The notes under the pieces: generated by a model
What the model saw: only the letters and a program-made list of their open reading frames with translations
The model's database searches: none
What the model was told of the DNA's origin: nothing
Program-made: the position numbers and the translations under genes
NCBI GenBank assembly: GCA_016782405.1
Contig: JADHYO010000011.1
Span: 1 to 26,682, forward strand
Length of the DNA stretch: 26,682 nucleotides
Source of the DNA: Candidatus Aenigmatarchaeota archaeon
GTDB taxonomy: Archaea > Aenigmatarchaeota > Aenigmatarchaeia > QMZP01
Direction of reading: 5' to 3'
Shown: positions 1,900-26,682 of the stretch, piece by piece
Layout: every line of letters begins with the position of its first letter
Numbering within the stretch: position 1 is the stretch's first letter

Positions 1900-2739
1900 A
1901 TGAAAATAGTGTTTTCTCCTCGCTGTTTGCAGTATTACCAGCCTGGCCATCCCGAGGGGCCTGAGAGGATTGAGAGGACGCTGGAACACCTGAAGCAGAG
2001 GGGATATCTTTTTTCTGAGCCAGCTCCTTGCAGGGAGGAGGAGCTGTTGCTCTGCCACAGCCAGGAGCATGTGGACTCTGTGAGGAGCGAGGCGCTGGTT
2101 GGCGGTGAGACGCCTGTGTATTCTGGGATTTTTGATTATGCTCGGCTTGCTGCTGGCGGGGCGCTAAGGGCGATGCTCTATGCCTTGGATGGTGAGGATG
2201 CCTTTTCCCTGATGAGGCCCCCTGGCCACCATGCTTCCAAAGGACCGGAGGGTTTCTGCTATTTTAACAACATTGCGATTGCTGTGAAGAAGGCATTGGA
2301 GAAAGTGGAGAGGGTTGGGATTCTGGATTTTGACGCGCATCATGGGAACGGAACCCAGGATATTTTCCTCGGGGACTCTCAAGTGTTTTATGTCTCGCTC
2401 CATCAAGCAGGGATTTACCCAGGGACAGGCTTGGCCTCAGAGAAAAACTGCATTAATTTTCCTTTAGCTCCATTCACTGGGGAAGAGGAATATTTAAGGA
2501 AATTTGAAAAAAGCCTGGAAAGGATGAAACAATTCATGCCAGACCTACTAGCGGTTTCAGCTGGCTTTGACGCGCATCGAGAGGACCCAATCACCCAGCT
2601 GGGGCTGACTGAGGCAGGCTTCGGAACAATCGGAGAAAAAATCAAGGGGTTTGGGGTTCCTGTGTTTGCTGTGATGGAGGGGGGCTACTCAGAAAAAGTC
2701 CCGAAAAGCGTTAGGGAGTTTTTGCGGGGATTGGAGTGA
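1900..2739 (+). CDS. Histone deacetylase/AcuC/acetylpolyamine amidohydrolase family protein (short form)
   Basis: Motifs PPGHHA, FCYFNNIAIA, DFDAHHGNGTQ and a C-terminal MEGGY correspond to the Zn-dependent deacetylase active site. A GGGG RBS-like stretch precedes the ATG. Confidence 0.7.
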   Translation: MKIVFSPRCLQYYQPGHPEGPERIERTLEHLKQRGYLFSEPAPCREEELLLCHSQEHVDSVRSEALVGGETPVYSGIFDYARLAAGGALRAMLYALDGEDAFSLMRPPGHHASKGPEGFCYFNNIAIAVKKALEKVERVGILDFDAHHGNGTQDIFLGDSQVFYVSLHQAGIYPGTGLASEKNCINFPLAPFTGEEEYLRKFEKSLERMKQFMPDLLAVSAGFDAHREDPITQLGLTEAGFGTIGEKIKGFGVPVFAVMEGGYSEKVPKSVREFLRGLE

Positions 2740-2770
2740 AGCTTAAATTATTTTCCTCGAAAAGGTTGTC

Positions 2771-3463
2771 ATGAGGAGAATGCAAGTTTATCCTGTCCTG
2801 TTGGAGGAGCCTGGGCAGCAGATTGCAGTTGCCCGCGAGCTACTTGAGGCTGGGGCTGACGGGTTTCACATTGATGTGATGGACGGGGTGTACAACAGTG
2901 GCAACACTTTGCGTTTGGTTGACCCCTCCATGATAGAGGAGGTGTACCGCAGGACAGGAGCCCCAATGGATATCCACCTTATGGTTATGGGACCTGCTCA
3001 CTTGGTAGGTGTATACACTTCTGGGGAGCGCAGAACTATTATCTCGCAGTTTGAGTGCTTTCAGAATGAGAATGAATGCTGGGACTTTATTCACAAAACC
3101 AGTGGCTATGGGGGTATGGTGGGGCTTGCGCTGGAGCCAGACACACCAGTTGCTGATATTAGGAAATATTTGCAATATCTTGACCAGGTACTGGTTATGT
3201 CAGTCCCTACCGGTGGGTCAGGGCAGCAGTTCATTAACCAGAGTAAGAAGATTAGGGAGCTTGCAGAGATTAGGGATGAAAGGAATACTAGGAGTGAAAG
3301 GAGATATTGCTTTGTTATTGGAAGTGATGGAGGGATTGATGAGGAAACAGCGCCGCTGGTTAAGAGTGCTGGGTCTGTCAGGGTGGCTGCAGATTCTTCT
3401 ATTAGGAGGGCTAGGGAGAGGGGAATGAGCTACAGGGATATAATCAGGAGCCTGAGGGGTTAG
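2771..3463 (+). CDS. rpe: Ribulose-phosphate 3-epimerase-like protein (with internal insertion)
   Basis: GFHIDVMDGVYNSGN, MDIHLMV, VMSVPTGGSGQQF and GSDGGI ... AADSSI align with Rpe motifs HFDVMDNHYVPN, IDVHLMV, LMSVNPGFGGQSF and VDGG ... AGSAIF. An extra ~40-aa insert lies between strands 3 and 4. Confidence 0.65.
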   Translation: MRRMQVYPVLLEEPGQQIAVARELLEAGADGFHIDVMDGVYNSGNTLRLVDPSMIEEVYRRTGAPMDIHLMVMGPAHLVGVYTSGERRTIISQFECFQNENECWDFIHKTSGYGGMVGLALEPDTPVADIRKYLQYLDQVLVMSVPTGGSGQQFINQSKKIRELAEIRDERNTRSERRYCFVIGSDGGIDEETAPLVKSAGSVRVAADSSIRRARERGMSYRDIIRSLRG

Positions 3464-4396
3464 TCATTTCTTCTCTTGGTTTTTTTGCTTCTTGCTGCTG
3501 ACCTCTGCTTCAAGGGCTGGTAGTGTTTCTTTTATCCTGGCAAGGCGCGACTGGTATTTCTCTGTCTTAATTTTGTAGAGGGACTCTGAGATAATGCCAT
3601 GTTTAAAGCGGTCCTCCTGGGCTTTTTTCATGAGGTGGATCAGGCTTTTTTTCTCCCTTTTCAGGCGGTGGATTTTCTTGATGAGCTTGCGACGGCGGAG
3701 GGCTCTCCAGGATACCAATGCAGCTAGGGAGCAGGCAGCAATGACAATAATTGTTTCAACCCAGTATGTTTCAATGAAGCTTTTTCCAGCAGATGTTATA
3801 ATGCTTAAGGATGTGACAGATGCCTCACTTTCTTCTAGGGTTTGTTTGGCTTGCTCCAGGAGGGAGGAGGCCTCTTCGTAACGTTCTTTGTAAAAGGCTT
3901 CACGGGCCTGCTCCAGAAGGGATGCAGCCTCGGAAGTGTCCACCAACTGCTTCTGTTCTTGCTTAGAAAAAAGATTCATTAAACCGGGCTCTTTGAATTC
4001 TTCTGTGCTGTAGGAATCCAGCTTCTTGCTGAATGCTGTTATTGAATCAAAAAGAATGATTTCATCATCTGCTAGCTGGCAGACTTCTTCTGCAGCTGAA
4101 ATTGCCCCAGCGTATGTTTTTTCTTCAGCAGGCAATCCTGTCAAGGACTGATTTAAGGCAGCGGCAACTGGGCCACTTAACCCTTTCTTCAGGCTTTCAA
4201 CAGATTCAGCCCTCCTCTTGATGTCATTGACCCTGATTAGGAGGTCCTCTGCCATCCCAGTTGGGAGGTTGTTGCTTTTCAATTCTTGGATGCATTGAGA
4301 TGCGTTTTCAATAGCAGAGGCTGCATCCTCCATGGGCTGGGCTGATACCAAAGGGAGGAGTACCAGGAAGGCAGCAAGCAGGGCTAGGGTTTTCAT
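3464..4396 (-). CDS. Secreted, C-terminally membrane-anchored coiled-coil protein; third gene of the giant-surface-protein operon
   Basis: N-terminal signal peptide MKTLALLAAFLVLLPLVSA. Helical/coiled-coil ectodomain, a TM helix (TIIVIAACSLAALVSW) and a basic cytoplasmic tail carrying the AQEDRFKHG...Y...RLARIKE motif shared with the giant protein. Start overlaps the giant ORF stop by 4 nt (ATGA). Confidence 0.6.
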   Translation of the reverse strand: MKTLALLAAFLVLLPLVSAQPMEDAASAIENASQCIQELKSNNLPTGMAEDLLIRVNDIKRRAESVESLKKGLSGPVAAALNQSLTGLPAEEKTYAGAISAAEEVCQLADDEIILFDSITAFSKKLDSYSTEEFKEPGLMNLFSKQEQKQLVDTSEAASLLEQAREAFYKERYEEASSLLEQAKQTLEESEASVTSLSIITSAGKSFIETYWVETIIVIAACSLAALVSWRALRRRKLIKKIHRLKREKKSLIHLMKKAQEDRFKHGIISESLYKIKTEKYQSRLARIKETLPALEAEVSSKKQKNQEKK

Positions 4397-7300
4397 TCTT
4401 CACCTCCTGGCTTGATGTGTTTTGATTCAATAACCATGCGCTCGCCCTCTATTTCAGCGATGCGCCCATTTAGCTCTTTCTCTATTCCCTTGTACTCGTC
4501 TCTTGATGTTTTCCCTTTTTCGAGGTAGTCTTCCTGGGCCTGCTTCAGAGATGACATCACTTCATTGCTCTCCCTGTCCAGGTCCTTGAGAACTTGGTTT
4601 GGTTTGAGGAGGCGGACCCTCTTGTGGCGGAGTGTTGTCCTCTCTTTTTTTATTTTGGCAAGGCGTTTCTGGTAGTCTGAAAGTACAGAGTGGTATGCTG
4701 CATAACCGAGCTTTCCTTTTTCAAGGTAATCTCGCTGGGTTTCTTTTAACAGCTCCTTCAGGGTTTGCTCTTCTTTTTCCAGTCTCCTGATTCTCTCAGA
4801 GATTGTTGCTTTTGTATGGGCCCTGTAACCAACCACACCTGTTGCTGACGCAAGGAACATTGCAATTATTATTGCCCACCAGTAGGTGAGGAGGAATAAC
4901 ACAGGGTTGAAGATGCTGGATTCTGCTGCCAGGCCTAGCATTGCTTCGCGGGCACGCTGCAAGGCTGATGTGTAATCCTCGCGCTCAAATGCTGCTTCAG
5001 CCAGGCGGAGGAGCTCCTCGGTTTTTTCTAAGGAATCAGGAGATCCAGTTAGAGAGAGTGATGCAATATCATTTTTCAGGGATTCAATCAGGTCGCTGGC
5101 TTCTAAAGCATTCTTTTTCATTGATTCTATTTCTTTGCTGAGTTCCCAGACCTTTGAGAAATCCCTTTGTTCCAGGGCTTTTTTTGCGTCAGCCAGCAGT
5201 CCGGATAGTTGGTCTGTGGGGAAGCCTGCTTTTTTCATTTCTTCTAGGGCGGATTCTGCTTCCTTCAGCAACTGGGAGGCTTGGCTCTCGCTTACCTCAT
5301 GTATAACAAGAGTAACAGTCCTGCTTTCAACAAGGTCCTTGTTCACACCATTTCCGATGATTTTACCTGTGATGGTTATAGATAGCCAGTGGGTCCCTGC
5401 TTTCATATAGTCAGGGGATGTTACTGTCACCAAGAATTCTGCGGATTCGCCGAAAGGAATACTCTCTATCTCAACAGGGGAGAACTCAAGGTACTGGGAG
5501 AAGAAACCCTCGATTTTCATGGTCACATCTTCAAGAGCTGCATCTTCAAAGATGTTTTTGACTGTGACTGGGAATAATTGACTCCCTCCGCGCACCAGCT
5601 CCACAGTCTCCTTAGAGGAGAGGAGCTCTTTTCCTCTAAGTACAGCGCTAACAACCTGGGAGGTTGTTGCTCCGCCGGTTGAACCGCCGCCGCCGACTTC
5701 TGTTGTGGTTGTCTGGGTTACTGTTGTGGTGACTGTTGTGGGGATTCCTATGGAAACACTCTTGGAGTCAGAACTGCTGGAGCCTTCAGAAGAGGAGGCT
5801 GTGGCATTGATTGTGACTGTTTTGTTGTCTGCAGTGGAGCTGACATCTATTGTTATTGTATTGGTTGCAGATGAGCCAACTGTGAGGCTGTCAATAGAGC
5901 GGTTGAGTGTGCCACTCTGGTTGGAAAATTCTGCTGGAAGGTCCCAGGCTAACCAGACCCCTGAAGCATCAGAGGTTCCTAGGTTCTCTACCTTGGAAAC
6001 ATAGGTTACACCTGAATCTCCTTTGCTTACAGCAGAGGTGAATGTTGTTATTGTAACAGATAGGAATGGACCTGGGGTATTCTGGATGTTTATCTGGGCA
6101 GATGCTGTGTTTGAGGATGGGGAGGAGGAGCTGTCGTTTGCTGTGGATGTTATTGTGAAATTGTAGGAACCAACTGCAAATCCTGTTGTGTTTGCTGTGA
6201 CATTGAGTTTTCCTGAGGAGCCTGACGGGATTGTTAGGAGCGTGCTTGTGTTCTCTGTTCCATTGAATGTTATCCAAGCTGCGCTTGATGAAAGATTGAA
6301 TTCCAGTGGATGGTCACCTGTGTTGTTGACAGAGACATTGCCCAGTGAAATCACTCTGGGCTCGCTCCTGACAACTGATTTAACTGATGGTATTGTGCTG
6401 TAGAATGTCCATGTCTTGTCCAAGGATACTGAAACGGTTTCAGTTGAGGAGATGTTCTGGTTTCCGCTGTCATCCTCTACCAAAACTCGGAAGGTCCAGT
6501 TGTTTGTTGTGTTTGCAGTGAAGTTTCCTGTAAACAAGTCCCCGGAAAGGGAGTGCATGGTGAAGTTGAGGAATTTTGAGGCATTATTCTCCTTGAACTG
6601 GAGCAGGAGAATGGATAGGTTTGTGTTGTCAGTTGCATTCGCTGTCACGTTTACAGAGACGCCGGGGTCAAGGTCTCCTGTTGAGGAGGGGGAGTAGGTG
6701 ATATTACTTAGGATGGGATTAGTGACATCAGTCACTGTGAATGATGTGGAGGTGGAGTTTTCATTACTAGTGGTGTCATTAACATAGAAGACGCATGTGA
6801 CGCCGCCCTTGGAAAGGTTGGCTGCTGGGATTGTGAGATTCAAATCTGCGGAGGTGCCTGACAGGGAAAATGTTGTGTTTACAAAGGAGCCGCTGGAATT
6901 CTGTTCCACTATACCAAATGCTAGTTCTATGTTGTCGCTCCAGGAGGAGTGGCAGGTTGCAGAGGCATTGTCCGTGGCTGTGGAGGGGTCTGTAGCTGCA
7001 GCAGAGAACTGGGGGGAGGTGTTGTCAAAGGTGAAAAAGATGATGGAAGAGGCGCCGGTGTTCTGGGATGTGTCATTTGCGAAGAATGAGATGTTGTGGG
7101 AGCCCTGGGAAGGGGTGATGGTGGTGTTCCAGAGAATGAGGGAGGCGTTTCCCATGCTCACGTTGGCGGCGTTGTCCAGGGAGTACCAAGCTGCTGAGCT
7201 GTTTTCATCCATGCTTATGTTTAGCAGTAAGGTGGAGTGGAGTGAATTGTTCAGCGGGGAGAGGACAACAATTGAGGGTGGGGTGGTATCGCCTCCTGAT

Positions 7301-10263
7301 GTGTCCACAGTAAAGGTCCGGACAGATGAAGTTCCCATATTATCAATTGAGTCATTGGCAAAGAATTGAATGGTATGGACACCATCAGCTATGGAGTTTA
7401 GTGTGGCTATCCAGAGTGTTGATGATATAGATGTCATGGTGACATTGGCCCCACTGTCCATTGAGTATAAAGCTGAATCAGCGGATTCACCCAGGCTTAT
7501 TGTAGCATAGAAAGTGGATTGGGTGTATGTTTTGTTTTCCGGTGTTGCTACTGTTACTATAGGGGCAGTTGAGTCGCTGATATATGTTCCACTAATTCCG
7601 TTGTTGACAGCTGCCTCGGTGGAGTTGTCAAAGATGTATACAAACCAATCATATACAGCATCAGTGGTGGAGCTGGTGAAGTTGCAGGATGAGTTGATCT
7701 TTGATGTTGTGTTAGAGCATAAGGTTCCGGTTATACAGCCTGAGGAATTTGCTTCACTGGTGTTACATACATAGAGGAATATTGCTTGGCCTAGGTCACC
7801 ATCGGTCTCATTTGAGACAGTGGTTATTGAAATATTTAGACCGCCTTTTATTGTTTCAGCGGAAGCAGATGCAGAGGTGAGGACTGGCAAGCGGTTGATG
7901 TTTATTGTGCTGCTCTGAGTTGACTGCGCGTTGCCTGCATCATCTGTTGAATTGTAGCGGAGGTAATTCGGTCCGCGGTGGGAGGAATTGAATTCAATAA
8001 CTGGGACCCCCCCATCTGAAACTGTGTTTGGTGTACATGTGTCGGTGGTGTCTGTGCAGAATTTTGTTTCAGGGTCGCTATCGACGTTGTCTGACTCTGT
8101 TATGGTGACATTGTAGTCTGGTGAGTGGATGATGGTGTTGGAGCTGTCTGATGTTTGCGGGGCTGTCCAGTCTGTGACAAAGGATATGATGTCAATGTTC
8201 TGAGATGTGTTTTGGCTGTTTGTCATATTGTCTGCACAGGCAATGTAAATGTTTGTTGTGTTGGAGCCTTCTGTGTCAGTTGTGACGGTGCAGGATGAGT
8301 TAGTGCCTGTGGTCACGCATGCCAGTCCTGTACCTGGGTTGTAGGCATTGTCTGTTGTGTAATGCCTGCACAGCATACCATACTCCCCTATGACAGTGAC
8401 GTTTGTATAGCCATCATTCACATTGTCGTAAAAGGTTGCAGGAATTGTTTTAGCAACACTGGTTGTTGCATTGGATGCGTTTTCTGTGACTGTAACTGTG
8501 GATGAAAGGGTTGGTGGGGTTGAGTCTGTTGTGTAGGTTGTTGATTGGGCACTGGAATAATACACTAGGTCATAAACCCTGCAGTATACTGTGTGGGCGG
8601 CATCATCAGTTGTTGCTGTGAAAGTGCAGTTCATTGCAGAGTATGGGTTTGCATAGGAACTGTCTCCCTGGCTACATTGGGTATTGCTTGAGTCAGGTGT
8701 TGCATTCTCAGAGCAGTAAAACCTGAGGTTGTCATTGTTGGAATCATTCACCCCGCTTGGTTCAATTGCTATCAGGCCACCGCCTTTGATTGGATCGGGG
8801 TGGTCTGCAACTGACGAGAGTCTTGGCGTCACTACAATGGTTTGGTTTGATGTTCCAACCAGGAATATGTCTGAATCGTAGAAAAGGGCTTTTATAGTGA
8901 AATTGCCTTTCGATGTATTCATTGGGAGGGTGTGGTTGTATTCCCAGAGATTTTCTGAGTTGTTGACTCCCTGATGAACTGTTCCGTTGATTTGGAATGT
9001 GACATTTGTTATAACTGATGTGCCGCCGGTTTCGTTGAAACTTATGTTCACTGTATCATTAATCATGAATTCTTGCAGGAGGGTTGGGGTTACAAAGCTT
9101 GTGTTTGGCACATCACCAAAAGTATAGGTTGCAAATCCAAAGCTGTCTGTGCTTGTTCTGTTGTAAAATGTGTATTCCACCTTGTTGTAATTCATCCTGT
9201 TGGTCTTAGGGAAATTACTGCAACGTGTTGTTGGGTAGCGGTGATGGTCTGTTGAAAACTTTATTAGGACAGGTGCGCCAAACCCACCAGGTCCGGAATG
9301 ATTGACATATCCAATTACGTCGTCTGCTCCAGTTTCATTGGTGAAAATAATGTGGTAAAGTCCATTCCCATCAATGCAGCCAGATAGGTCCTCGCTGTCT
9401 AGCGAGCCCAGCGTGCTTTCATGGAATGTTTCACCGGAGTCGTTGCTGTATACAACCAGGAGGGTGTCTGTTTCTATTTCACCTGTTATCAGGATGTGAT
9501 CACCCCGCGTGTTGATTGAAACACTGTGGACACTGCTTCCATCTGATCCTGTATGCACGCTCCTGGATGTGGACGTTACAAAATTGTCTGAGGAGTTGTA
9601 CAGCATTAAGTTGTCAGGTATGCCCTGCTGATCATCAACAGCAATGTATATGTCACCATCATCAGTAACGTCAATGCCACACATGTTCGTGTTCCTGGCG
9701 TTACCAATCTCTGTTCTGGTCCATGTTCCAGATTCTGAGTCAAGTGTGGCGTTGATAAAAACTGTATCCTCGGCTGAGTCATATGCGCATATCACCCATT
9801 GGTTGTTGACCCCGTCATAAGCAACAGCAGGTTCGTTCAGGTTGCTTGTCAGCCCTGCTGCATCCGCCAGTGAGGAAAAGCCTGCGCAGCCTGTGTCAGT
9901 TACTGAATACTGGATGTCCCCCTGTCCTGTCTGGTCTGCTATTACTATTGCTCTTGTACCGTTTGTTGCTATGCTTGGCCATTGGTAGGTTCCTCCTCCG
10001 ATCTCTGTTTCACTGGACCAGGTTGCCCCGTTGTCTGTGGACTGGGCACATCTGACGTCATTGTCAACATCCTCCCATACAGCTATCAGCATTTCATTGT
10101 CCAGCCTTACCATATTTTTCTGGGCTGGGTCTCCACCTGCTGTTGCAGCGACTGCCTTGCTTGAAGGGTTGCTTATGTAAGAGCTGCTGAAACCTGCATA
10201 GGCTGTGGCAGTCAGTAGCGAAAGCCCTATTACAACTGCAAGTATGAAAAAAGATTGTTTCAT
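4393..10263 (-). CDS. Giant (1956 aa) secreted surface glycoprotein: N-terminal BNR/Asp-box beta-propeller, long Ser/Thr/Asn-rich Ig-like repeat region, poly-Thr linker, helical stalk, C-terminal TM helix and repeated cytoplasmic coiled-coil motif
   Basis: Signal peptide MKQSFFILAVVIGLSLLTATAYA. Asp-box motifs STDNGATWS and SNDSGETF. Very high density of N-x-S/T sequons. Linker PTTVTTTVTQTTTTEVGGGGSTGG. TM PVLFLLTYWWAIIIAMFLASATGVVGY. The tail carries two copies of Q(R/E)DYLEKGK...Y...(R)(L/I)A.I..E. Confidence 0.8.
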   Translation of the reverse strand: MKQSFFILAVVIGLSLLTATAYAGFSSSYISNPSSKAVAATAGGDPAQKNMVRLDNEMLIAVWEDVDNDVRCAQSTDNGATWSSETEIGGGTYQWPSIATNGTRAIVIADQTGQGDIQYSVTDTGCAGFSSLADAAGLTSNLNEPAVAYDGVNNQWVICAYDSAEDTVFINATLDSESGTWTRTEIGNARNTNMCGIDVTDDGDIYIAVDDQQGIPDNLMLYNSSDNFVTSTSRSVHTGSDGSSVHSVSINTRGDHILITGEIETDTLLVVYSNDSGETFHESTLGSLDSEDLSGCIDGNGLYHIIFTNETGADDVIGYVNHSGPGGFGAPVLIKFSTDHHRYPTTRCSNFPKTNRMNYNKVEYTFYNRTSTDSFGFATYTFGDVPNTSFVTPTLLQEFMINDTVNISFNETGGTSVITNVTFQINGTVHQGVNNSENLWEYNHTLPMNTSKGNFTIKALFYDSDIFLVGTSNQTIVVTPRLSSVADHPDPIKGGGLIAIEPSGVNDSNNDNLRFYCSENATPDSSNTQCSQGDSSYANPYSAMNCTFTATTDDAAHTVYCRVYDLVYYSSAQSTTYTTDSTPPTLSSTVTVTENASNATTSVAKTIPATFYDNVNDGYTNVTVIGEYGMLCRHYTTDNAYNPGTGLACVTTGTNSSCTVTTDTEGSNTTNIYIACADNMTNSQNTSQNIDIISFVTDWTAPQTSDSSNTIIHSPDYNVTITESDNVDSDPETKFCTDTTDTCTPNTVSDGGVPVIEFNSSHRGPNYLRYNSTDDAGNAQSTQSSTININRLPVLTSASASAETIKGGLNISITTVSNETDGDLGQAIFLYVCNTSEANSSGCITGTLCSNTTSKINSSCNFTSSTTDAVYDWFVYIFDNSTEAAVNNGISGTYISDSTAPIVTVATPENKTYTQSTFYATISLGESADSALYSMDSGANVTMTSISSTLWIATLNSIADGVHTIQFFANDSIDNMGTSSVRTFTVDTSGGDTTPPSIVVLSPLNNSLHSTLLLNISMDENSSAAWYSLDNAANVSMGNASLILWNTTITPSQGSHNISFFANDTSQNTGASSIIFFTFDNTSPQFSAAATDPSTATDNASATCHSSWSDNIELAFGIVEQNSSGSFVNTTFSLSGTSADLNLTIPAANLSKGGVTCVFYVNDTTSNENSTSTSFTVTDVTNPILSNITYSPSSTGDLDPGVSVNVTANATDNTNLSILLLQFKENNASKFLNFTMHSLSGDLFTGNFTANTTNNWTFRVLVEDDSGNQNISSTETVSVSLDKTWTFYSTIPSVKSVVRSEPRVISLGNVSVNNTGDHPLEFNLSSSAAWITFNGTENTSTLLTIPSGSSGKLNVTANTTGFAVGSYNFTITSTANDSSSSPSSNTASAQINIQNTPGPFLSVTITTFTSAVSKGDSGVTYVSKVENLGTSDASGVWLAWDLPAEFSNQSGTLNRSIDSLTVGSSATNTITIDVSSTADNKTVTINATASSSEGSSSSDSKSVSIGIPTTVTTTVTQTTTTEVGGGGSTGGATTSQVVSAVLRGKELLSSKETVELVRGGSQLFPVTVKNIFEDAALEDVTMKIEGFFSQYLEFSPVEIESIPFGESAEFLVTVTSPDYMKAGTHWLSITITGKIIGNGVNKDLVESRTVTLVIHEVSESQASQLLKEAESALEEMKKAGFPTDQLSGLLADAKKALEQRDFSKVWELSKEIESMKKNALEASDLIESLKNDIASLSLTGSPDSLEKTEELLRLAEAAFEREDYTSALQRAREAMLGLAAESSIFNPVLFLLTYWWAIIIAMFLASATGVVGYRAHTKATISERIRRLEKEEQTLKELLKETQRDYLEKGKLGYAAYHSVLSDYQKRLAKIKKERTTLRHKRVRLLKPNQVLKDLDRESNEVMSSLKQAQEDYLEKGKTSRDEYKGIEKELNGRIAEIEGERMVIESKHIKPGGEE

Positions 10264-20620: not shown

Positions 20621-21040
20621 CTATCTCCCCGTGTTCTGCGTTTTCGTTTCATCATCATCACTTTTTGATGACTGTGGGCGGTTTTCCTTTATCCAGGACT
20701 GGATTATCTGGATCACCTTCTTGGTCGCTTCTTTGTGGACCTCCTCTGCATTGCTGCCCCCGGGTACAAGGACCCAGTCCTCCGCGAACTCTGAGACAGC
20801 TTCGCTGTTGATTTTCCCTTCATGAACTTCTGGGAAGATGTTCTTCTGGTAGTCCATGTAGGACTGGGAGTTCGAGTTTGGATCAAGTTGCAGTTCCTTG
20901 CAAATTTTGGCCCACAGATTGCGCTCGTCTGTGCCGTATCTATGGGCCGGTATCACCTCGCCAAAGACAGACCACCCACAGATCAATAAAAGAATCACTA
21001 TAGAAGCATAAAGAATCCATTCAGCATGCTTAGCCTTCAT
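20621..21040 (-). CDS. Small N-terminally anchored protein, paralog A of a tandem pair
   Basis: TM anchor WILYASIVILLLICGW. Conserved block IFPEVHEGKINSEAVSEF...AEEVHKEATKKVIQIIQSWIKENRPQ shared with the next gene. Confidence 0.5.
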   Translation of the reverse strand: MKAKHAEWILYASIVILLLICGWSVFGEVIPAHRYGTDERNLWAKICKELQLDPNSNSQSYMDYQKNIFPEVHEGKINSEAVSEFAEDWVLVPGGSNAEEVHKEATKKVIQIIQSWIKENRPQSSKSDDDETKTQNTGR

Positions 21041-21070
21041 TTCACTTCTCCTGCAAAGGTTATGTTGCGT

Positions 21071-21481
21071 TTATCCCATAATACCCCGTGTTTTCACACC
21101 GTCATCATGTTTTTGCGTCTGCGGGCGGTTTTCCTTTATCCAGGCCTGTATTATCTGGATCATCTTCTTGATCGCTTCTTTGTGGACCTCCTCCGGCGTT
21201 TTGTCCTCGGGGACAACAGCAAACTTCTTCGCGAAGGATTTGACAGCTTCGCTGTTGGTTTTGCCTCCATGAATTTCTGGGAAGATTTTGTTGTAATAGT
21301 TTGCGTAAGCTGGCTTACTTTGCTCGAAGCTTACCCCATTACAAAGATCGAGCCAGAGATAGTCCATATCTGCTTGGTATTCCAACTTTGGAATAACCAC
21401 ACAGAAGATGAGCCATAAAAAAGTCGATAGAAGTACTACTGCAACAGTCATAAGAAACCGTTCAGCGGGCGCGAATTTCAT
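21071..21481 (-). CDS. Small N-terminally anchored protein, paralog B (ORF track extends to 21538; Met at 21481 matches paralog A N-terminus)
   Basis: MKFAPAERFLMTVAVVLLSTFLW anchor. IFPEIHGGKTNSEAVKSFA...PEEVHKEAIKKMIQIIQAWIKENRPQ. The C-terminal coding halves share ~85% nucleotide identity. Confidence 0.5.
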   Translation of the reverse strand: MKFAPAERFLMTVAVVLLSTFLWLIFCVVIPKLEYQADMDYLWLDLCNGVSFEQSKPAYANYYNKIFPEIHGGKTNSEAVKSFAKKFAVVPEDKTPEEVHKEAIKKMIQIIQAWIKENRPQTQKHDDGVKTRGIMG

Positions 21482-21585
21482 TTCACTTCTCCTGATAAAG
21501 GTTCTGCTAGAAATATTTCCTACCCAAGTCTTTTGCATTCAGCAAGGACCTGGAATTTACGCACGAAAGTCATTGATTGAGCATG

Positions 21586-21616
21586 AACGCTTGGTAGCGA
21601 TTTGCTATTAGTTGGA
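21586..21616 (+). repeat. Degenerate copy (A0) of the cassette-boundary repeat
   Basis: GAACGCTTGGTAGCGATTTGCTATTAGTTGG versus core CGCCCTTGGCAATGTATGCTATAAAG, roughly 65% identity. Same orientation as the other copies. Confidence 0.3.
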
Positions 21617-21681
21617 GGCAAGGAATTTAAGGGTTTTTGGAGCCTGGAATAATAATATAATGTCTCCATCTAAAATATTGT

Positions 21682-22206
21682 ATGATTGAGCTGGAAAGGA
21701 CTTTTCTTGCCAAAGCTGTTCCCGCGGGAATTGAGAAATACAAGTCAAAGGAGATTGTTGATGTGTATATTCCTGCTTCCCATCCGCATCCCACTCTGAG
21801 GATTCGTAAGGAAGGAGATAAATTTTTCCTGACAAAGAAACAGCCTGTTGCAGGGGACGCTTCTGAGCAGAAGGAGCAGACAGTTGAACTTAGCAGGGAG
21901 GAGTTTGAAACGCTTTCTTCGGTTCCTGGGAAAGTTGTCCAGAAGATACGTTTCTATTATCCTTTTGAGGGGAGAACAGCAGAGATTGACGTGTTCCAAG
22001 GCCAACTCAGGGGGCTTGTCCTTGTTGACTTTGAATTCTCCACTCCAGAAGATAAGGCTGCGTTTACCCGGCCGGATTTTTGCCTAGCAGACGTTACCCA
22101 AGAGGAATTCATTGCCGGAGGCAAGCTATGCGGGAAGTGTTACAAAGACATAGAGAGTCAGCTTCAGTGGTTTGGGTATACGAAGCTTGAGGTTTGTGGG
22201 AAGTGA
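21682..22206 (+). CDS. CYTH-domain protein (triphosphate tunnel metalloenzyme; CyaB/thiamine-triphosphatase-like)
   Basis: N-terminal MIELERTFL (ExExK signature). TLRIRKEGDKFFLTKK, plus later acidic and basic beta-strand pairs (ELSREEFE, RFYYPFEGRTAEIDVF). Confidence 0.65.
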   Translation: MIELERTFLAKAVPAGIEKYKSKEIVDVYIPASHPHPTLRIRKEGDKFFLTKKQPVAGDASEQKEQTVELSREEFETLSSVPGKVVQKIRFYYPFEGRTAEIDVFQGQLRGLVLVDFEFSTPEDKAAFTRPDFCLADVTQEEFIAGGKLCGKCYKDIESQLQWFGYTKLEVCGK

Positions 22207-22281
22207 GCTTGCGGTGTTGGCGGCAGTGTCCTGGCAGAATTAATCGTGCAGACTGCCCTTGGCGATGTCTGCTATAAGATG
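22201..22281 (+). repeat. Cassette-boundary repeat copy A (extended form with upstream AGTGAGCTTGCGG element)
   Basis: …AGTGAGCTTGCGG…GGCAG…TAATCGTGCAGACTGCCCTTGGCGATGTCTGCTATAAGATG. Aligns with copies B, D and E. Confidence 0.6.
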
Positions 22282-22436
22282 TTCTATGAGAGTTTTATGG
22301 CATTATATGGGTGCTATATGATATAAAATTCAGAACACACTAAAACACCCTGAAAGGGGGTGTGGGATTGGGTGTTATTTATGCCATATAAATTATATAA
22401 TATTATACGGTGTTATATGATGGTATATAACAGTAT

Positions 22437-22886
22437 GTGATGGATATGATAAAAGAACTCAAAATTACAGATGAAAAGTTGCAAAATGTGGGATTGAGAC
22501 CTTTAATAACAGCAGTCATGATGGAAAACAGTTTCAAAAAGGGGTTTGTTAGAAACAACAGTGATGGGAGTGTGTCTGTTTTTGCTGAAGATACAAATGA
22601 TTTAGAGAAACTAAAGGATGCTTTAAACCAAGAAATTGAGAAAGAGGCACATAAATCTTATTCCAACATTTCAAAAGATTTTAAGCTTTCAGATTGGGCT
22701 GACCCGAACCCACATCCTCCTGAACTCATGGATTTGTCTAGTAATTTCAATGATATGTTAAACTTAAGACAGGTGACTAAAGGTGCAAGTGTCATGCAAA
22801 ATGGGTTTGAAAATACAATAAAAATACTTAATGAATTACCAGAAAATATAGCAAAAGCAATTGAAAAGACCAACTCTAAAAAATAG
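22437..22886 (+). CDS. Acylphosphatase-like domain protein (divergent), AT-rich cassette gene
   Basis: VGLRPLITAVMMENSFKKGFVRNNSDGSVSVFAEDTNDLEKLKDAL resembles the ACYP/HypF-N signature V.GVGFR..v...A...L.G.V.N..DGSVei.aeG. Much lower GC than neighbours. Start is GTG 22437 or ATG 22440. Confidence 0.35.
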   Translation: MMDMIKELKITDEKLQNVGLRPLITAVMMENSFKKGFVRNNSDGSVSVFAEDTNDLEKLKDALNQEIEKEAHKSYSNISKDFKLSDWADPNPHPPELMDLSSNFNDMLNLRQVTKGASVMQNGFENTIKILNELPENIAKAIEKTNSKK

Positions 22887-22930
22887 CCAATATTCTAACC
22901 ATAAATTTATCAGGCTTTAAGGGTAAAGCC

Positions 22931-22997
22931 AGCGGGCGCGAGCTTCGCGAAAAGTGAGCCTGCTGCCTTGGCTACAGTGTTCTGGCATATAAATAAT
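22931..22997 (+). repeat. Cassette-boundary repeat copy A' (shortened; with CGCGA-GCT-TCGCG hairpin and AAGTGAGC element)
   Basis: CGCGAGCTTCGCGAAAAGTGAGCCTGCTGCCTTGGCTACAGTGTTCTGGCATATAAATAA. Same orientation. Confidence 0.5.
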
Positions 22998-23014
22998 ACG
23001 TCAGGAAATCAGCG

Positions 23015-23566
23015 TCAGGCGCAGCTCTTTCCTGGGTCACTTGGATAATCACCCATGTTGAGAACCCTGCCTTTGGGGAGGGCTTCAAAACTGCCTGTTT
23101 TCATGTCAATATAAACACAGCCACCATAACCAGGCCACCCCACTTCCTCCTCGAGGCTGAATTCCTCTTTCATGACATATGAAGGGAGCTCTGACGCAAT
23201 CTCATAATGGCTCACCACAATCACGTTTTTCCTGCCCAGCCCCTTAATCATACTGTAAAGGCGCTCAAAATCATTATCAAAAGCCCCTTGGATGGGCCAG
23301 AGGTAGGGCTCGAACTCTATATCCCCCACATCGCAGTTAACATAAGGTGAAATTATTATTGAGCTGTTGCGGCAGCGCGTTGCTGTTGATGAAATTATGT
23401 GGACAGGCTCCAGCTCAAGCACTTCGCCTATGGCGAGGCCTATCTTTTCCATTTGTTTCTTGCCGTTTTCACTCAGCCACTCATCCACATCCTTGTCCCT
23501 TTCCCCGTGCTGAACAACAAACAGGCGCTCAAGCTTCTGGTCCATATTTGTTCTTTGGAGAGACAC
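23015..23566 (-). CDS. Histidine-phosphatase superfamily protein (SixA/phosphoglycerate-mutase-like)
   Basis: RHG catalytic motif in LFVVQHGERD. Second catalytic His in VIVVSHYEIASEL. Likely start at the Met at 23545 (MDQKLERLFVVQHGER). Confidence 0.6.
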   Translation of the reverse strand: MSLQRTNMDQKLERLFVVQHGERDKDVDEWLSENGKKQMEKIGLAIGEVLELEPVHIISSTATRCRNSSIIISPYVNCDVGDIEFEPYLWPIQGAFDNDFERLYSMIKGLGRKNVIVVSHYEIASELPSYVMKEEFSLEEEVGWPGYGGCVYIDMKTGSFEALPKGRVLNMGDYPSDPGKSCA

Positions 23567-23583
23567 TTAAAAAGTGTTATTTT

Positions 23584-23676
23584 GCGTGAGCTTCACGACA
23601 GGCGCGGCAGCTTTCCCTAGCCAATCTTTCTTAGTCATATAGCCCACCCTTGGCAGCGCCTGCGGCAGAGGACTGC
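23584..23676 (+). repeat. Cassette-boundary repeat copy B (extended form with CGTGA-GCT-TCACG hairpin)
   Basis: CGTGAGCTTCACGACAGGCGCGGCAG…TTTCTTAGTCATATAGCCCACCCTTGGCAGCGCCTGCGGCAGAGGACTGCA. Confidence 0.6.
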
Positions 23677-23677
23677 A

Positions 23678-24049
23678 TTACCCCATCTGCTTCAAACTAA
23701 TTGGCTTGACTAGCGGTAGAACAATCACTTCCTTTTCTATCACTGGCCTTACTTCCCTTCCGGTTTTCTCAAGCTCCACTACCCCGAATTTCTCAAGTGC
23801 CTTGAGGTCCCTCTCAATTGCAGGGAGTGCCCTCTTCAGTGATGTTGCCAATTCTGACATGGTTTTCGGCTTCTTTTCTTTAATTGCTTCAATGAGCTCT
23901 ATCCTCCTTCTTGTGAATATCTGTGTGAGCTCTTCCTTGGAAAGAGCCAATAGCAGGACATTGTCCGGGGTTTTTTCAGGGTGCCTCACACTTTCCCTGA
24001 TGTAGCCCATGACACTTTCCCACCGCTCATCAGTCATCTTGTATGCCAT
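23678..24049 (-). CDS. Winged-helix transcriptional regulator (ArsR/MarR-like), second gene of a two-gene cassette
   Basis: HTH core TMSELATSLKRALPAIERDLKALEKFGVVE. A 12-nt gap separates it from the upstream 104-aa ORF. Confidence 0.5.
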   Translation of the reverse strand: MAYKMTDERWESVMGYIRESVRHPEKTPDNVLLLALSKEELTQIFTRRRIELIEAIKEKKPKTMSELATSLKRALPAIERDLKALEKFGVVELEKTGREVRPVIEKEVIVLPLVKPISLKQMG

Positions 24050-24061
24050 TTTTTCACCTCC

Positions 24062-24376
24062 TTACTTCAAACTTGTTTTCTGAATGTAATAGCTTCTGTA
24101 CCGCTCGAAGCTTTCTTTCACCTGTTTCATATAAAACTCAAATGCGTAATCCAGGGATGTGTGCTGTATCAGGGGGATGGGCTCTGGCGACAGCCAAAAT
24201 CTCTGCTCATGCAGATACCCATGTGCGTTGTCCACCCTGTATACTTGATGCCACATTCCTTCTATCATGCATCTGAGGTTGATTACAAAGCTATCCACCC
24301 CACATTTCTCGATAACTATCTCCACATCGAGAATGTATTCTCCTGTCAGGGGAATTTTGAAACGCTTCTTCTTCAT
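24062..24376 (-). CDS. Hypothetical 104-aa protein paired with the wHTH regulator (toxin-antitoxin-like two-gene cassette candidate)
   Basis: ORF with good coding texture. No motif recognised. Tight linkage to the HTH gene. Confidence 0.4.
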   Translation of the reverse strand: MKKKRFKIPLTGEYILDVEIVIEKCGVDSFVINLRCMIEGMWHQVYRVDNAHGYLHEQRFWLSPEPIPLIQHTSLDYAFEFYMKQVKESFERYRSYYIQKTSLK

Positions 24377-24491
24377 GCAGCCATTATGGTTAACATATTA
24401 GGTTAAGTATTTAAATAGTTAACGGTATGTGTTAAGTTTTCAGCCTTCCTTGCGCTGCTCTGGTTCACATCATAAATTTCCACAGCAAGGG

Positions 24492-24544
24492 TTTCTTAGT
24501 CATACAGGCCGCCCTTGGCAATATCTGCGACAGGGACCGCAGAG
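24492..24544 (+). repeat. Cassette-boundary repeat copy C
   Basis: TTTCTTAGTCATACAGGCCGCCCTTGGCAATATCTGCGACAGGGACCGCAGAG. About 80% identical to copy B over 53 bp. Contains the inverted repeat CTGCG-N8-CGCAG. Confidence 0.65.
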
Positions 24545-24546
24545 AA

Positions 24547-24879
24547 TTAAACGCTATGCTGCACAGTTATTGGTGCTTCCTGCCTATCTGCAGCTGTTGT
24601 TATCAGCTGCTTCTCCAACCTGAACAACTCCTCCACCAACGGGTTGCCTCGGTTAATCTGGTAGAGTTTTGCCTTCCCGAATTTCCTTGAAATCTTTACA
24701 ATGCCAAACCCTTCCAGGCGGTCCCAGTGCTTGTAGAATGTGGCCTTGCTCATGCCTGTTTCTTCTATGATTTCCTTTTTGCTGAAGTCAAACAGCTTGT
24801 TATCAAGGAAAAAGTCTATTATTCTCATCTCTGGGGAACTGCCCAGCATCTCCAACAGGAGGGATTTCTCTTTGTTCAT
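24547..24879 (-). CDS. Winged-helix transcriptional regulator (TrmB/ArsR-like)
   Basis: FSKKEIIEETGMSKATFYKHWDRLEGFGIVKISRKFGKAKLYQIN is a classic archaeal wHTH. Confidence 0.6.
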   Translation of the reverse strand: MNKEKSLLLEMLGSSPEMRIIDFFLDNKLFDFSKKEIIEETGMSKATFYKHWDRLEGFGIVKISRKFGKAKLYQINRGNPLVEELFRLEKQLITTAADRQEAPITVQHSV

Positions 24880-24942
24880 AGTAATACCATTATAACACCG
24901 CTATAACACCACTATAACTAACTTAGCAAGTAAAGTATTTAA

Positions 24943-25254
24943 ATGTATCCTTACAAAGGTATTATAAGTGAACTTTTATGGGGGAAGAAGGACCTTACTG
25001 ACCGGCAGATTGAAGCTACTATTTTTGACAAACTTGCGAGGAAGGGGATGTGGGGGAATGTGTACAGACCAGCAGAAAGCATGGCCAAGTGGATAACCAA
25101 CAGGCTTAGAAGAAACGGAAAGAGGGTTGAATCTATTATGCACGGCCTGGAAAAGAAGGGATTACTCCTGTTCAAGAAGTCAGGGATGGTGGTATCGCTA
25201 AACCCCAGAAAAAAGGAAGATATTCTGAAAACAATCGAGGATGAGTTATATTAA
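24943..25254 (+). CDS. Hypothetical 103-aa basic protein, divergent from wHTH gene (possible wH fold)
   Basis: KRVESIMHGLEKKGLLLFKKSGMVVSLN resembles a recognition helix plus wing. No family assigned. Confidence 0.35.
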   Translation: MYPYKGIISELLWGKKDLTDRQIEATIFDKLARKGMWGNVYRPAESMAKWITNRLRRNGKRVESIMHGLEKKGLLLFKKSGMVVSLNPRKKEDILKTIEDELY

Positions 25255-25257
25255 TTT

Positions 25258-25300
25258 CAGTTGTACAGCCCGCCCTTGGCAATGTATGCTATAAAGAAGA
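25258..25300 (+). repeat. Cassette-boundary repeat copy D (begins at the stop codon of 24943-25254)
   Basis: CAGTTGTACAGCCCGCCCTTGGCAATGTATGCTATAAAGAAG. Confidence 0.65.
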
Positions 25301-25339
25301 ACACAAACATACTTTTAACTAAAAAACAAATATATAATC

Positions 25340-26362
25340 ATGGAAAGGGGTGTACTTCTTGCATTTCTCTTGGGAATGGCCGTTGTTGTCAGCGGGTGTA
25401 TAGTCCCACCTGCGGAGACTCCTCCCTATCAACCATATGAGAGAGAACATTTCAACTATCCTTGGGGAGAGATTCCTGAGCAAAACTGGACGAATCCGCG
25501 ATATGAACAAATACTCACTGCTGCCTTGAGGGATGCGAATGTCTCGCTTTGCCCTGAAATGGAGGACATTGGCAATTGCTCCATCCAGTTAAGGTACAAT
25601 GCGAGAGCCTGCACGCCATACCAGAGCCAGTGTTTTTATGAAATAGCCACGAAAACAAATAATGAGTTTTTGTGTGAAAATGTGAGCAATCCTTTATTTG
25701 CACTCTACTGCTTTGAATATATTGCCCTCGCGAAGAACAATACTGTCATCTGCGGGAAACTGGCCTCCATTAACCGGACAAAACTGGCCAACTGGTATGA
25801 CATTCCCATCGAGAATGTCTCCCTTGCTAACGATGTTGCTTACTGCCGCCAGAAAATTGCTGTCCAGACGCTCAATGTCAGTCTGTGTGAAATCAGCCAT
25901 ATTGCAGAAAACAATGTGTGGGAATTCTCCTGCCTGCACGATGTTGCCTTTGGGCTGAACAACATCAGCATCTGTGAGTTGATTGAGATTACAAACGAGA
26001 GGGAGTTCTGTTACAAGGGCATTGCAGAAAAGAACAAGGACCAGTCAATCTGCGATATGATTTCCCCGTTCTCTGTGGCCTGGGAAGCCGGTCCACTCAC
26101 GCGGGACCTCTGCTACCAGGATGTTGCTGCCGCAGCGAGAGATCCTTCTCTCTGCAAACTGGTTCAGAATTCAGAAGACCAGAATGGATGCTTTAAGATG
26201 ATGGCGAGGTTGATGAAGGATTACACTCTCTGTGCGTCTATCGCCGACCAGTATTTTAGGGATGTGTGTTATTCTAGTGTAGCGGATTGGACATATGACA
26301 AATCTGCATGTCAGTTTATTCAGAATGTGAATATGAAGCATTCCTGCCTCAATCCACTCTAA
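25340..26362 (+). CDS. Secreted Cys-rich tandem-repeat lipoprotein
   Basis: Signal peptide with a lipobox-like VVSGC. 21 Cys at ~12-14-residue spacing in reiterated [ND]-x-S-[LI]-C-x-x-I units (NVSLCPEM, NVSLCEIS, NISICELI, DQSICDMI, DPSLCKLV, DYTLCASI, DKSACQFI). Confidence 0.6.
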   Translation: MERGVLLAFLLGMAVVVSGCIVPPAETPPYQPYEREHFNYPWGEIPEQNWTNPRYEQILTAALRDANVSLCPEMEDIGNCSIQLRYNARACTPYQSQCFYEIATKTNNEFLCENVSNPLFALYCFEYIALAKNNTVICGKLASINRTKLANWYDIPIENVSLANDVAYCRQKIAVQTLNVSLCEISHIAENNVWEFSCLHDVAFGLNNISICELIEITNEREFCYKGIAEKNKDQSICDMISPFSVAWEAGPLTRDLCYQDVAAAARDPSLCKLVQNSEDQNGCFKMMARLMKDYTLCASIADQYFRDVCYSSVADWTYDKSACQFIQNVNMKHSCLNPL

Positions 26363-26387
26363 TCGTACAGCCCGCCCTTGGCAAAAC
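26360..26387 (+). repeat. Cassette-boundary repeat copy E (begins at the stop codon of the lipoprotein gene)
   Basis: TAATCGTACAGCCCGCCCTTGGCAAAAC. Its 5' part is near-identical to copy A (TAATCGTGCAGACTGCCCTTGGCGA). Confidence 0.65.
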
Positions 26388-26388
26388 C

Positions 26389-26682
26389 TCAAGCGTTAAG
26401 AAGAAAGATGCTTAAGTTCAGTGCCAATGCTATTGTGACCCAGGCAATGTACGGCAGAAGCAGCAGGCCTGCTGGCCTTGATACCTTGTAAAAAGATCGT
26501 AATGTCAAGGCTATGACAATCCAGAGGATTGCGATTTCTGCCAGGCCCAATATTGGGGACTGGAGGCCAAAGAAAAGGAATGACCAGAGCGCATTCAGTG
26601 CCAACTGTATAGCGAAGAGAACATAGGGCTGGCGGCTAGGCTGCTTTCTCCAGACCAGCCAGAGGGCAATCCCCATCAGGGC
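26389..26682 (-). CDS. tspO: TspO/MBR family protein, C-terminal portion (N-terminus lies beyond window end)
   Basis: LWLVWRKQ…LFAIQLALNALWSFLFFG…LLLLPYIAWVTIALALN matches the TspO TM4-TM5 signature (LLLPYLAW..FA..LN). Confidence 0.55.
   Translation of the reverse strand, partial: ALMGIALWLVWRKQPSRQPYVLFAIQLALNALWSFLFFGLQSPILGLAEIAILWIVIALTLRSFYKVSRPAGLLLLPYIAWVTIALALNLSIFLLNA

Follow-up and report, generated by a model that had tools for sequence, protein, structure and literature searches.

Remnants of the 3′ end of the small gene p83 separate the units of a compact gene array in a Candidatus Aenigmatarchaeota archaeon

'Gene capture' by integrases of the SSV/pNOB8 type was reportedly described in Sulfolobus by She et al. 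in 2001. A survey of Thaumarchaeota has found that archaeal mobile elements integrate in the 3′-distal part of protein genes and that re-use of the same site leads to tandem arrays (PMC6563490). Integrase-less cis-mobilizable elements (CIMEs) also accrete at gene 3′ ends, as exemplified by ICESt1/CIME at fda in Streptococcus thermophilus, ICE denoting an integrative and conjugative element, and by tRNA-linked tandem islands (PMC5704250). Here we describe a 4.2-kb array of small genes towards the end of contig JADHYO010000011.1 (assembly GCA_016782405.1) from the metagenome-assembled genome of a Candidatus Aenigmatarchaeota archaeon; the whole 26,682-nucleotide stretch analysed, which is the complete contig, is called the window below. 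The genes of the array are punctuated by short direct repeats, and these repeats are displaced 3′-terminal fragments of one small gene, p83.

The other system that comes into question is the integron. Its attC sites are characterized by an R″ box (RYYYAAC) and an R′ box (GTTRRRY) lying 50-150 nt apart and by an imperfect single-strand hairpin with extrahelical bases whose structure is conserved among copies; next to attI lies the gene of the tyrosine recombinase IntI with its IntI-specific insertion, which in a cluster of attC sites lacking integrase (CALIN) is not required. Integrons and CALINs are known in Archaea, including Aenigmatarchaeota, and the archaeal integrons described so far combine attC sites of canonical fold with integrases of the IntI type (PMC9668308). 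An earlier note on the window had read the locus as a candidate integron-like cassette array, or as a novel analogous system. Its description of same-orientation repeats that separate units of one or two genes beside a fixed anchor holds, as does its general idea of a cassette array built by insertion, and an insertional origin is the best explanation that we can offer; the nature of the repeats proved to be different.

The repeats belong to a direct-repeat family (D2) with a 30-nt core, whose five members start at 22241, 23632, 24497, 25258 and 26360. All five lie on the + strand, as the earlier note had stated, independently of the orientation of the neighbouring genes. They are 761-1391 bp apart, rather than the estimated 700-1100 bp, and the repeat has no fixed length, extending over 27-110 nt. 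The motif CCCTTGGCR occurs five times in the contig against an expectation of 0.59, a count attained by 0/100 shuffles, and every match is confined to the 4.2-kb array, with none elsewhere in the contig. Pairwise blastn comparisons of the junction regions gave E-values from 1e-5 to 2e-10. The two proposed sub-forms could both be recovered: the copies placed at 23584 and 24492 have 66 nt in common at 76 %, and the TAATCGTRCAG form is common to 22201, 25258 and 26360. Seven repeats had been listed. Five of them are the core copies, and the element at 22931 does not contain the core sequence but is homologous to the sequence that flanks the first copy on its left: 22939-23004 aligned to 22188-22251 scores 25.5, compared to 8.4 +/- 1.3 in 1000 shuffles, and blastn aligns the two at 74 % over 47 nt (E 5e-6). 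The seventh, at 21586, was dropped as a chance resemblance, with a shuffle-level score against every copy and no blastn match. Two copies had been said to start exactly at a stop codon; the first bases of copy 26360 are the TAA of the 340-aa open reading frame (ORF), whereas copy 25258 starts 3 nt past the TAA of the 103-aa ORF.

Translation of the minus strand reveals what the repeats are. All five core copies read AKGGLYD followed by a stop codon, with the variants GSLHD and GGLYN before the stop, and they correspond to the C-terminus of p83, which is FFVADIAKGGLYD plus stop in the intact gene. The minimal block common to the copies is GCC AAG GGN GGN CTN TAY GAY TAR. The remnants comprise 8-18 robust codons out of 83, and at least CCCTTGGC is common to every pair of them.

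The intact gene came to light when the 340-aa protein, encoded by the last complete gene of the window, was looked up for exact matches; these lie on four contigs from other samples, two in ENA and two in Logan. The longest of these sister contigs, L001 (4.2 kb), shares 2608 nt with the window at 99.3 % identity and extends 1.6 kb further. Its positions 2315-3035 hold the full 158-aa TspO gene and p83, followed by a divergent DUF488 gene. p83, which encodes 83 aa, occupies L001 2784-3035 on the minus strand and ends towards the array; its stop codon and the start codon of TspO overlap in ATGACTAA. It contains one more repeat copy (L001 2784-2852), and the last 40 nt of p83 are repeat sequence. 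Judged from L001, intact p83 lies 176 nt past the end of the contig, which breaks off within TspO, perhaps due to strain variation breaking the assembly.

Each remnant could be read in detail on the minus strand by translation and, for most copies, by alignment. Remnant A (22240..22275) consists of the stop and 11 codons, IADIAKGSLHD, that align to p83 residues 73-83. In its flank (22188..22239), the p83 stop meets the 3′ end of a CYTH gene in a convergent junction that contains a 34-nt spacer and the last CYTH codons; this flank is homologous to 22939-23004. The latter, B′ (22939..23004), was recognised by blastn and shuffle score as a degenerate, doubly truncated version of the same p83-stop/spacer/CYTH-3′-end junction; its + strand frame reads ELREK plus stop where the CYTH gene has LEVCGK plus stop. 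The first copy and the 22931 element have this convergent junction in common. Copies 23631 and 24496 run past the p83 stop into ATGACTAAGAAA, a diverged TspO N-terminus. In remnant C, the p83 part (23631..23663; AGAAKGGLYD, 10 codons plus stop) is joined through the ATGACTAA overlap to a TspO-start part (23597..23638) that continues as MTKKDWLGKAAAPV, approximately 14 diverged codons, and blastn aligns the remnant to the intact junction for 79 nt (71 %, E 9e-10). Remnant D begins directly after the stop of a 110-aa winged helix-turn-helix (wHTH) gene. Its p83 part (24496..24549; C-terminus VPVADIAKGGLYD plus stop), about 16 codons long, aligns as FSAVP--VADIAKGGLYD with an in-frame 6-nt deletion, and its TspO-start part (24477..24503) has the same overlap and then MTKKPLLWK, 8-9 codons until the homology stops; the match to the intact junction covers 77 nt at 74 % (blastn, E 2e-10). 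The corresponding start of the real TspO gene is MTKSWLWKAVALV, and the intact TspO N-terminus in L001 is MTKSWLWKAVALVV. Remnant E (25257..25310) contains FVFFFIAYIAKGGLYN plus stop, about 17 codons with the C-terminus FFFIAYIAKGGLYN; 2 nt separate its stop from that of the convergent 103-aa gene, and the remnant matches the intact gene end over 43 nt at 77 % (blastn). Remnant F (26359..26388), which translates as GFAKGGLYD plus stop and is also detected by blastn, takes up all of the space from the TspO stop to the stop of the 340-aa gene, which runs convergently. Remnants E and F, flanking this 340-aa predicted lipoprotein gene, are 100 % identical over 20 nt (blastn). Because TspO-start and CYTH-3′-end fragments accompany the copies, the repeats are remnants of gene junctions rather than a free-standing motif.

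The manner in which the copies differ is that of coding sequence. In the 7-codon core of six copies, pairwise differences are distributed as 15:0:50 over codon positions 1:2:3, and the same count for intact p83 orthologues from other contigs is 12:6:45. The copies end in TAC GAT TAG, TAT GAC TAA or similar synonymous variants, like different intact alleles. Since the divergence is codon-periodic and the endings are allele-like, the copies must be the once-functional ends of different alleles; they acquired their differences while still coding, in separate alleles or genomes, and were brought together only afterwards. Decayed duplicates of the resident gene end, or one local duplication, are ruled out by the third-position bias of the differences. 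Decay grows roughly with the distance from p83, F being perfect, A carrying two amino-acid changes and B′ being nearly erased; together with the confinement of the remnants to the last 8-18 codons, this gives weak support to insertion beside p83.

The p83 family comprises 21 database clusters of 79-84 aa, has no Pfam or NCBIfam model and is predicted to be a membrane protein. Its C-terminus, D-I-A-K-G-G-L-Y-D, is nearly invariant and kept in 21/21 clusters. The neighbours of p83 differ at nearly every locus examined (L001, L125-L140 and L143); neighbours in convergent orientation frequently overlap its stop codon or lie directly against it. On the contigs from four other samples the order D-E-F-p83 is identical, and the array is therefore not a chimera; look-ups of the 340-aa and 110-aa proteins returned the same arrangement only, and exact-protein look-ups of CYTH and DUF7718 returned no record. 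An identical DUF488 protein occurs only on the 4.2-kb contig, with the next relatives being 53 % identical, and no homologues of the cassette genes were found beside p83 at other loci. The array was found in this lineage only. The window differs from L001 by 12 single-nucleotide polymorphisms (SNPs) in 150 nt of DUF7718 (24075-24224) and by 7 SNPs in 49 nt of TspO (26437-26485), the 2.2 kb between the two clusters showing perfect identity. This mosaic suggests recombination between co-existing alleles.

Serial insertion at the 3′ end of p83, site-specific and with units that are now integrase-less, is the explanation we favour, with a probability of roughly 0.55, because the intact gene, the same-orientation displaced ends and the fragments of former neighbours all fit repeated insertion at a gene end. 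The direct repeats correspond to the 3′ end of the target gene and all lie in the orientation of that gene, and L001 has the intact p83 at the array end with its 3′ end facing the array, as in gene-3′-end accretion. Along the minus strand, the stop-to-stop spacings from p83 to A are 499, 1102, 761, 865 and 1391 nt. What follows on the succession of events, on where the crossover lay and on the enzyme is inferred. Segments of 0.5-1.4 kb would have been inserted one after the other directly at the 3′ end of p83, in at least five and probably six events, and every segment would have brought along the last 8-18 codons of some p83 allele. The incoming gene end would restore p83, and the previous end, along with the DNA following it, would be displaced further downstream, so that the outcome would be a row of same-orientation gene-end remnants between units of one or two genes. 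The joining is most likely attributable to a site-specific recombinase of the tyrosine type encoded elsewhere, for which the AKGGLYD-stop block would serve as the attachment site, as in tandem accretion at gene 3′ ends. The shortness of the remnants, the common CCCTTGGC and the 20-nt identity of E and F together favour a preferred joining site.

Several observations weigh against this explanation. The recombinase that the earlier note had suggested beyond the window end was not seen within the available 28.3 kb: none was detected in the contig (Pfam, all 30 main ORFs), none by PHROGs, NCBIfam and PADLOC in the array and the unannotated ORFs, and no recombinase domain in the genes called in the 1.6 kb past the contig end, which reach ~1.1 kb past p83. 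In size the units fall far below known integrative elements, and no decayed genes of such elements are visible in them. The extent of the homology varies among the copies on both sides, upstream and downstream, the repeats show no obvious dyad-symmetric core, and the intact p83 end (G) and F, which flank TspO, have only 7 consecutive identical nt in common. The intact p83 itself is absent from the window, and its position beside this contig is deduced from the sister assembly. At 17 other p83 loci, ~8 of which have at least 2 kb downstream, no remnant was detected by regular expression or by blastn with word size 7, and the p83 loci in the data include no syntenic empty-site relative. Furthermore, no attP match was found in 2.9 million viral contigs. 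The p83 profile did not match these viral contigs, and the back-translated core gave 2 matches, both in ribosome-binding-site regions of unrelated genes. A scan of the genome collection with TACAGNCCGCCCTTGGC yielded single matches in unrelated bacteria, which is the chance level for 16 fixed bases in 596 Gb, and carries no weight either way. The near-identical contigs from the four other samples show no difference in unit order, so that mobility at the present day is conjectural.

The absence of a visible recombinase is what a recombinase-free accretion would predict. In such a process, fragments from related strains containing the p83 3′ end and its downstream neighbour would circularise and integrate in the conserved end of p83 through single-crossover homologous recombination or homology-facilitated illegitimate recombination, each event duplicating the anchor. 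The variable remnant boundaries would then be those of random fragment ends, and the occurrence of diverged alleles of one gene with native-looking junctions of the TspO type and the CYTH type is in agreement with this idea, as is the strain mosaicism, which points to an exchange of alleles at the locus. However, the homology amounts to only 24-55 nt at 70-85 %, a poor substrate for homologous recombination, and 5-6 events at one spot, with remnants that never exceed the final quarter of the gene, would be unlikely without site preference; with random joins along 83 codons the chance is roughly < 0.001. Other p83 loci, moreover, are without such arrays. We therefore regard this route as unlikely, although it is the rival that deserves the most serious consideration.

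A more speculative form of site-specific insertion, in line with the novel analogous system that the earlier note gave as its fallback, would be a capture platform analogous to an integron, in which the p83 3′ block is the resident site and mini-cassettes of 0.5-1.4 kb carry mimics of the gene end as recombination sites of their own. Insertion, stacking and perhaps also excision of the cassettes would fall to an as yet unrecognised recombinase that works in trans on double-stranded sites, and TspO, the newest cassette, would be expressed through its translational coupling to the platform gene at ATGACTAA. On the present evidence such a platform seems doubtful.

The remnants could also have a history in situ, in which tandem paralogous p83 genes were each reduced to their 3′ end by an independent deletion. 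Diverged, codon-periodic remnants beside native-looking neighbours would likewise result from such a history. On the other hand, it demands at least 5 independent deletions, all sparing the last 8-18 codons and leaving the neighbours intact, and no tandem p83 paralogues occur at the p83 loci elsewhere. We judge this history improbable.

A dispersed non-coding repeat, such as a miniature inverted-repeat transposable element (MITE) or a repetitive extragenic palindrome (REP), had been named as an alternative in the earlier note, and a regulatory or terminator motif that resembles a gene end by chance, as well as an assembly artefact, could be considered together with it. Although the motif is short, intergenic and conserved, and two copies abut predicted promoters, the repeats match a real gene end at both the protein and the DNA level, including the overlapping TspO start; they have no terminal inverted repeats, no copies in the contig outside the array and an orientation independent of that of the neighbouring genes. 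No inverted repeats flank the units. An artefact of assembly is contradicted by the same order on the contigs from four other samples. This group of explanations is very improbable. A sigma-54-like or transcription-factor-operator reading of TTGGCA-N-TGC was also rejected, with the wrong spacing, an archaeal host and one copy lying between convergent gene ends.

The integron reading rests on the same-orientation repeats less than 4 kb apart, at least two in number, with one or two small genes or short ORFs between them, a pattern seen in integrons and CALINs, which are on record for this archaeal phylum. A regular-expression search on both strands of 21401-27200 gave 0 pairs of R″/R′ boxes, compared to 1.06 +/- 1.66 in shuffles, and the earlier note had already failed to find canonical boxes. 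The attC-type folding that it had suggested looking for was not observed: single-stranded DNA folds of six sites with flanks of 40-60 nt were no better than shuffles on either strand (z -1.6 to +1.4), RNAalifold of the six-copy alignment gave -1.43 kcal/mol with 3 trivial pairs and no covariation, and an Rfam scan of the whole window (E <= 10) returned no match in the repeat region. The repeat core is missing from the text-form attC and supplementary data of the archaeal integron report (PMC9668308). The repeats are coding remnants with codon-periodic divergence, for which an attC site would have no reason. Integron cassettes are generally co-oriented and promoterless; here the nine array genes are divided between the + strand (4) and the - strand (5), and two units have a predicted TATA-like motif. 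Collectively, we can conclude that the locus is neither an integron nor a CALIN, and a true array of attC sites with an IntI somewhere off the contig is the least credible of all explanations.

The unit genes themselves are intact and tightly packed. On the minus strand the order is p83/TspO, F, the 340-aa gene (reverse), E, the 103-aa gene (reverse), the 110-aa wHTH gene, D, DUF7718 and HTH genes, C, the SixA-like gene, B′, the acylphosphatase-like gene (reverse), A and the CYTH gene (reverse). The first unit after intact p83 is the 3′ part of the TspO gene (26389..26682, minus strand; Pfam TspO_MBR, E 4e-31), which is cut by the contig end. Unit F-E holds the 340-aa, Cys-rich predicted lipoprotein gene, which has no family match (25340..26362, plus strand), and unit E-D a divergent pair (24547..25254) of the 110-aa wHTH gene (-) and the 103-aa gene (+). 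In unit D-C (23678..24376, minus strand), a DUF7718 gene (104 aa) is followed by an HVO_A0114/ArsR-type HTH gene (123 aa), with Pfam E-values of 2.7e-11 and 4.8e-20, respectively. Unit C-B′ is a 183-aa gene (23015..23566, minus strand) with weak similarity to histidine phosphatases of the SixA type, for which NCBIfam sixA gave an E-value of 0.004, below the cutoff, and Pfam no match. Unit B′-A carries a 149-aa acylphosphatase-like gene (22437..22886, plus strand; GC 0.33). The distal array end is formed by the CYTH-domain gene (21682..22206, plus strand; Pfam CYTH, E 3.5e-7), which is convergent with remnant A and probably was the original neighbour of p83.

A strikingly uneven base composition had been claimed for the cassettes. 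This is true of the acylphosphatase-like gene, whose GC content at third codon positions (GC3) is 0.31, but the other cassette genes have GC3 values of 0.47-0.61, the same as the backbone, so that 22437-22886 is the only compositionally foreign unit. Upstream of this gene lies an AT-rich 157-nt spacer (22280-22436) that holds the direct repeats GGTGYTATATGAT and a hairpin at 22345-22363; on the minus strand a T-run comes after the hairpin. Upstream of two minus-strand units, the DUF7718/HTH pair and the 110-aa wHTH gene, a 36-nt sequence with AGTATTTAAAT and a TTTAAAT box is directly repeated at 75 % (24381-24416 and 24909-24944). The motif looks like a shared archaeal promoter or operator, and on this basis two cassettes appear to have their own predicted TATA-box-like promoters. 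The first copy is situated within a 46-nt palindrome (24390-24435).

The remainder of the contig has an archaeal gene content, including a KaiC-type ATPase, an HVO_A0114-type HTH protein, DUF7718, DUF7504 and MNT/HEPN pairs; among its annotated proteins (locus tag ISS93_) are MBL7160607.1 and the DEAD-box helicase MBL7160617.1. No tRNA gene and no Rfam family of note were detected in the contig. At 20621-21538, two adjacent minus-strand genes without family match (139 and 155 aa) are tandem paralogues, with a 204-nt repeat at 78 % between 20650-20853 and 21097-21300. A low-GC block in the otherwise 45 % GC contig (12902-17006) contains two tandem pairs of wHTH-nucleotidyltransferase and HEPN genes (GC 0.33-0.38) and a radical-SAM gene with a GC3 of 0.21, the latter located after u219, a gene of ordinary GC (0.46), and is probably a separate acquired island. 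The minus-strand ORF of 1956 aa at 4393-10263, with a marginal NPCBM_assoc match, presumably encodes a giant surface protein.

If serial insertion at p83 is true, gene-end hotspots in the reduced genome of a DPANN archaeon can operate gene by gene and need no resident integrase. Such hotspots would provide a route of piecemeal gene gain, which bears on how symbionts acquire membrane, regulatory and metabolic genes. A warning for the search for integrons follows from the locus as well: displaced gene ends can mimic same-orientation repeats with 1-kb cassettes, and translating the repeats on both strands quickly separates gene-end remnants from integron sites. Should a dedicated recombinase exist, the 24 nt of coding sequence would provide a defined att site from Archaea that might serve as a genetic tool. 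The interest of the locus would rise considerably with such a recombinase or with active cassette exchange.

Among the described systems, the array resembles ICE/CIME accretion, with which it has in common that the direct repeats copy the 3′ end of the target gene, that the intact gene is found at one array end, that successive insertions would have re-used the site and that the internal units are without integrase. The units here are 0.5-1.4 kb in size with one or two intact genes, whereas those of ICE/CIME arrays are multi-kb and decayed. Six or seven units stand in a row with no integrase or transfer gene seen, the repeats are 70-85 % alike, unlike the near-identical att copies of those arrays, and stem from different alleles, and the host is a DPANN archaeon. 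The Thaumarchaeota elements (PMC6563490) are similar in being archaeal, in targeting a protein-gene end, in supplying a replacement stop region and in their tandem re-use of the site, but they are proviruses, casposons and plasmids of several kb with an integrase or Cas1, none of which is found here. In contrast to casposons, the array shows neither terminal inverted repeats nor 14-15-bp target duplications.

With integrons and CALINs, the locus has in common small cassettes of one or two genes, same-orientation sites and a fixed platform. The first unit, TspO, would be translationally coupled to the platform gene, as its overlapping start predicts, which is a loose parallel to expression from Pc at attI. 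The differences are the lack of attC boxes, fold and IntI, sites that are double-strand coding remnants, a mixed gene orientation and, for some units, predicted promoters of their own. Additive flexible genomic islands next to tRNA genes are said by Lopez-Perez and Rodriguez-Valera to occur in marine bacteria. As in those islands, cassettes accumulate at one site and each is bounded by a duplicated gene 3′ end; the islands are strain-variable, tRNA-anchored, bacterial and integrase-associated, whereas the contigs here have one order in common. Taken together, these comparisons place the p83 locus as a probable fine-grained, integrase-less variant of the known gene-end insertion hotspot in a DPANN archaeon.

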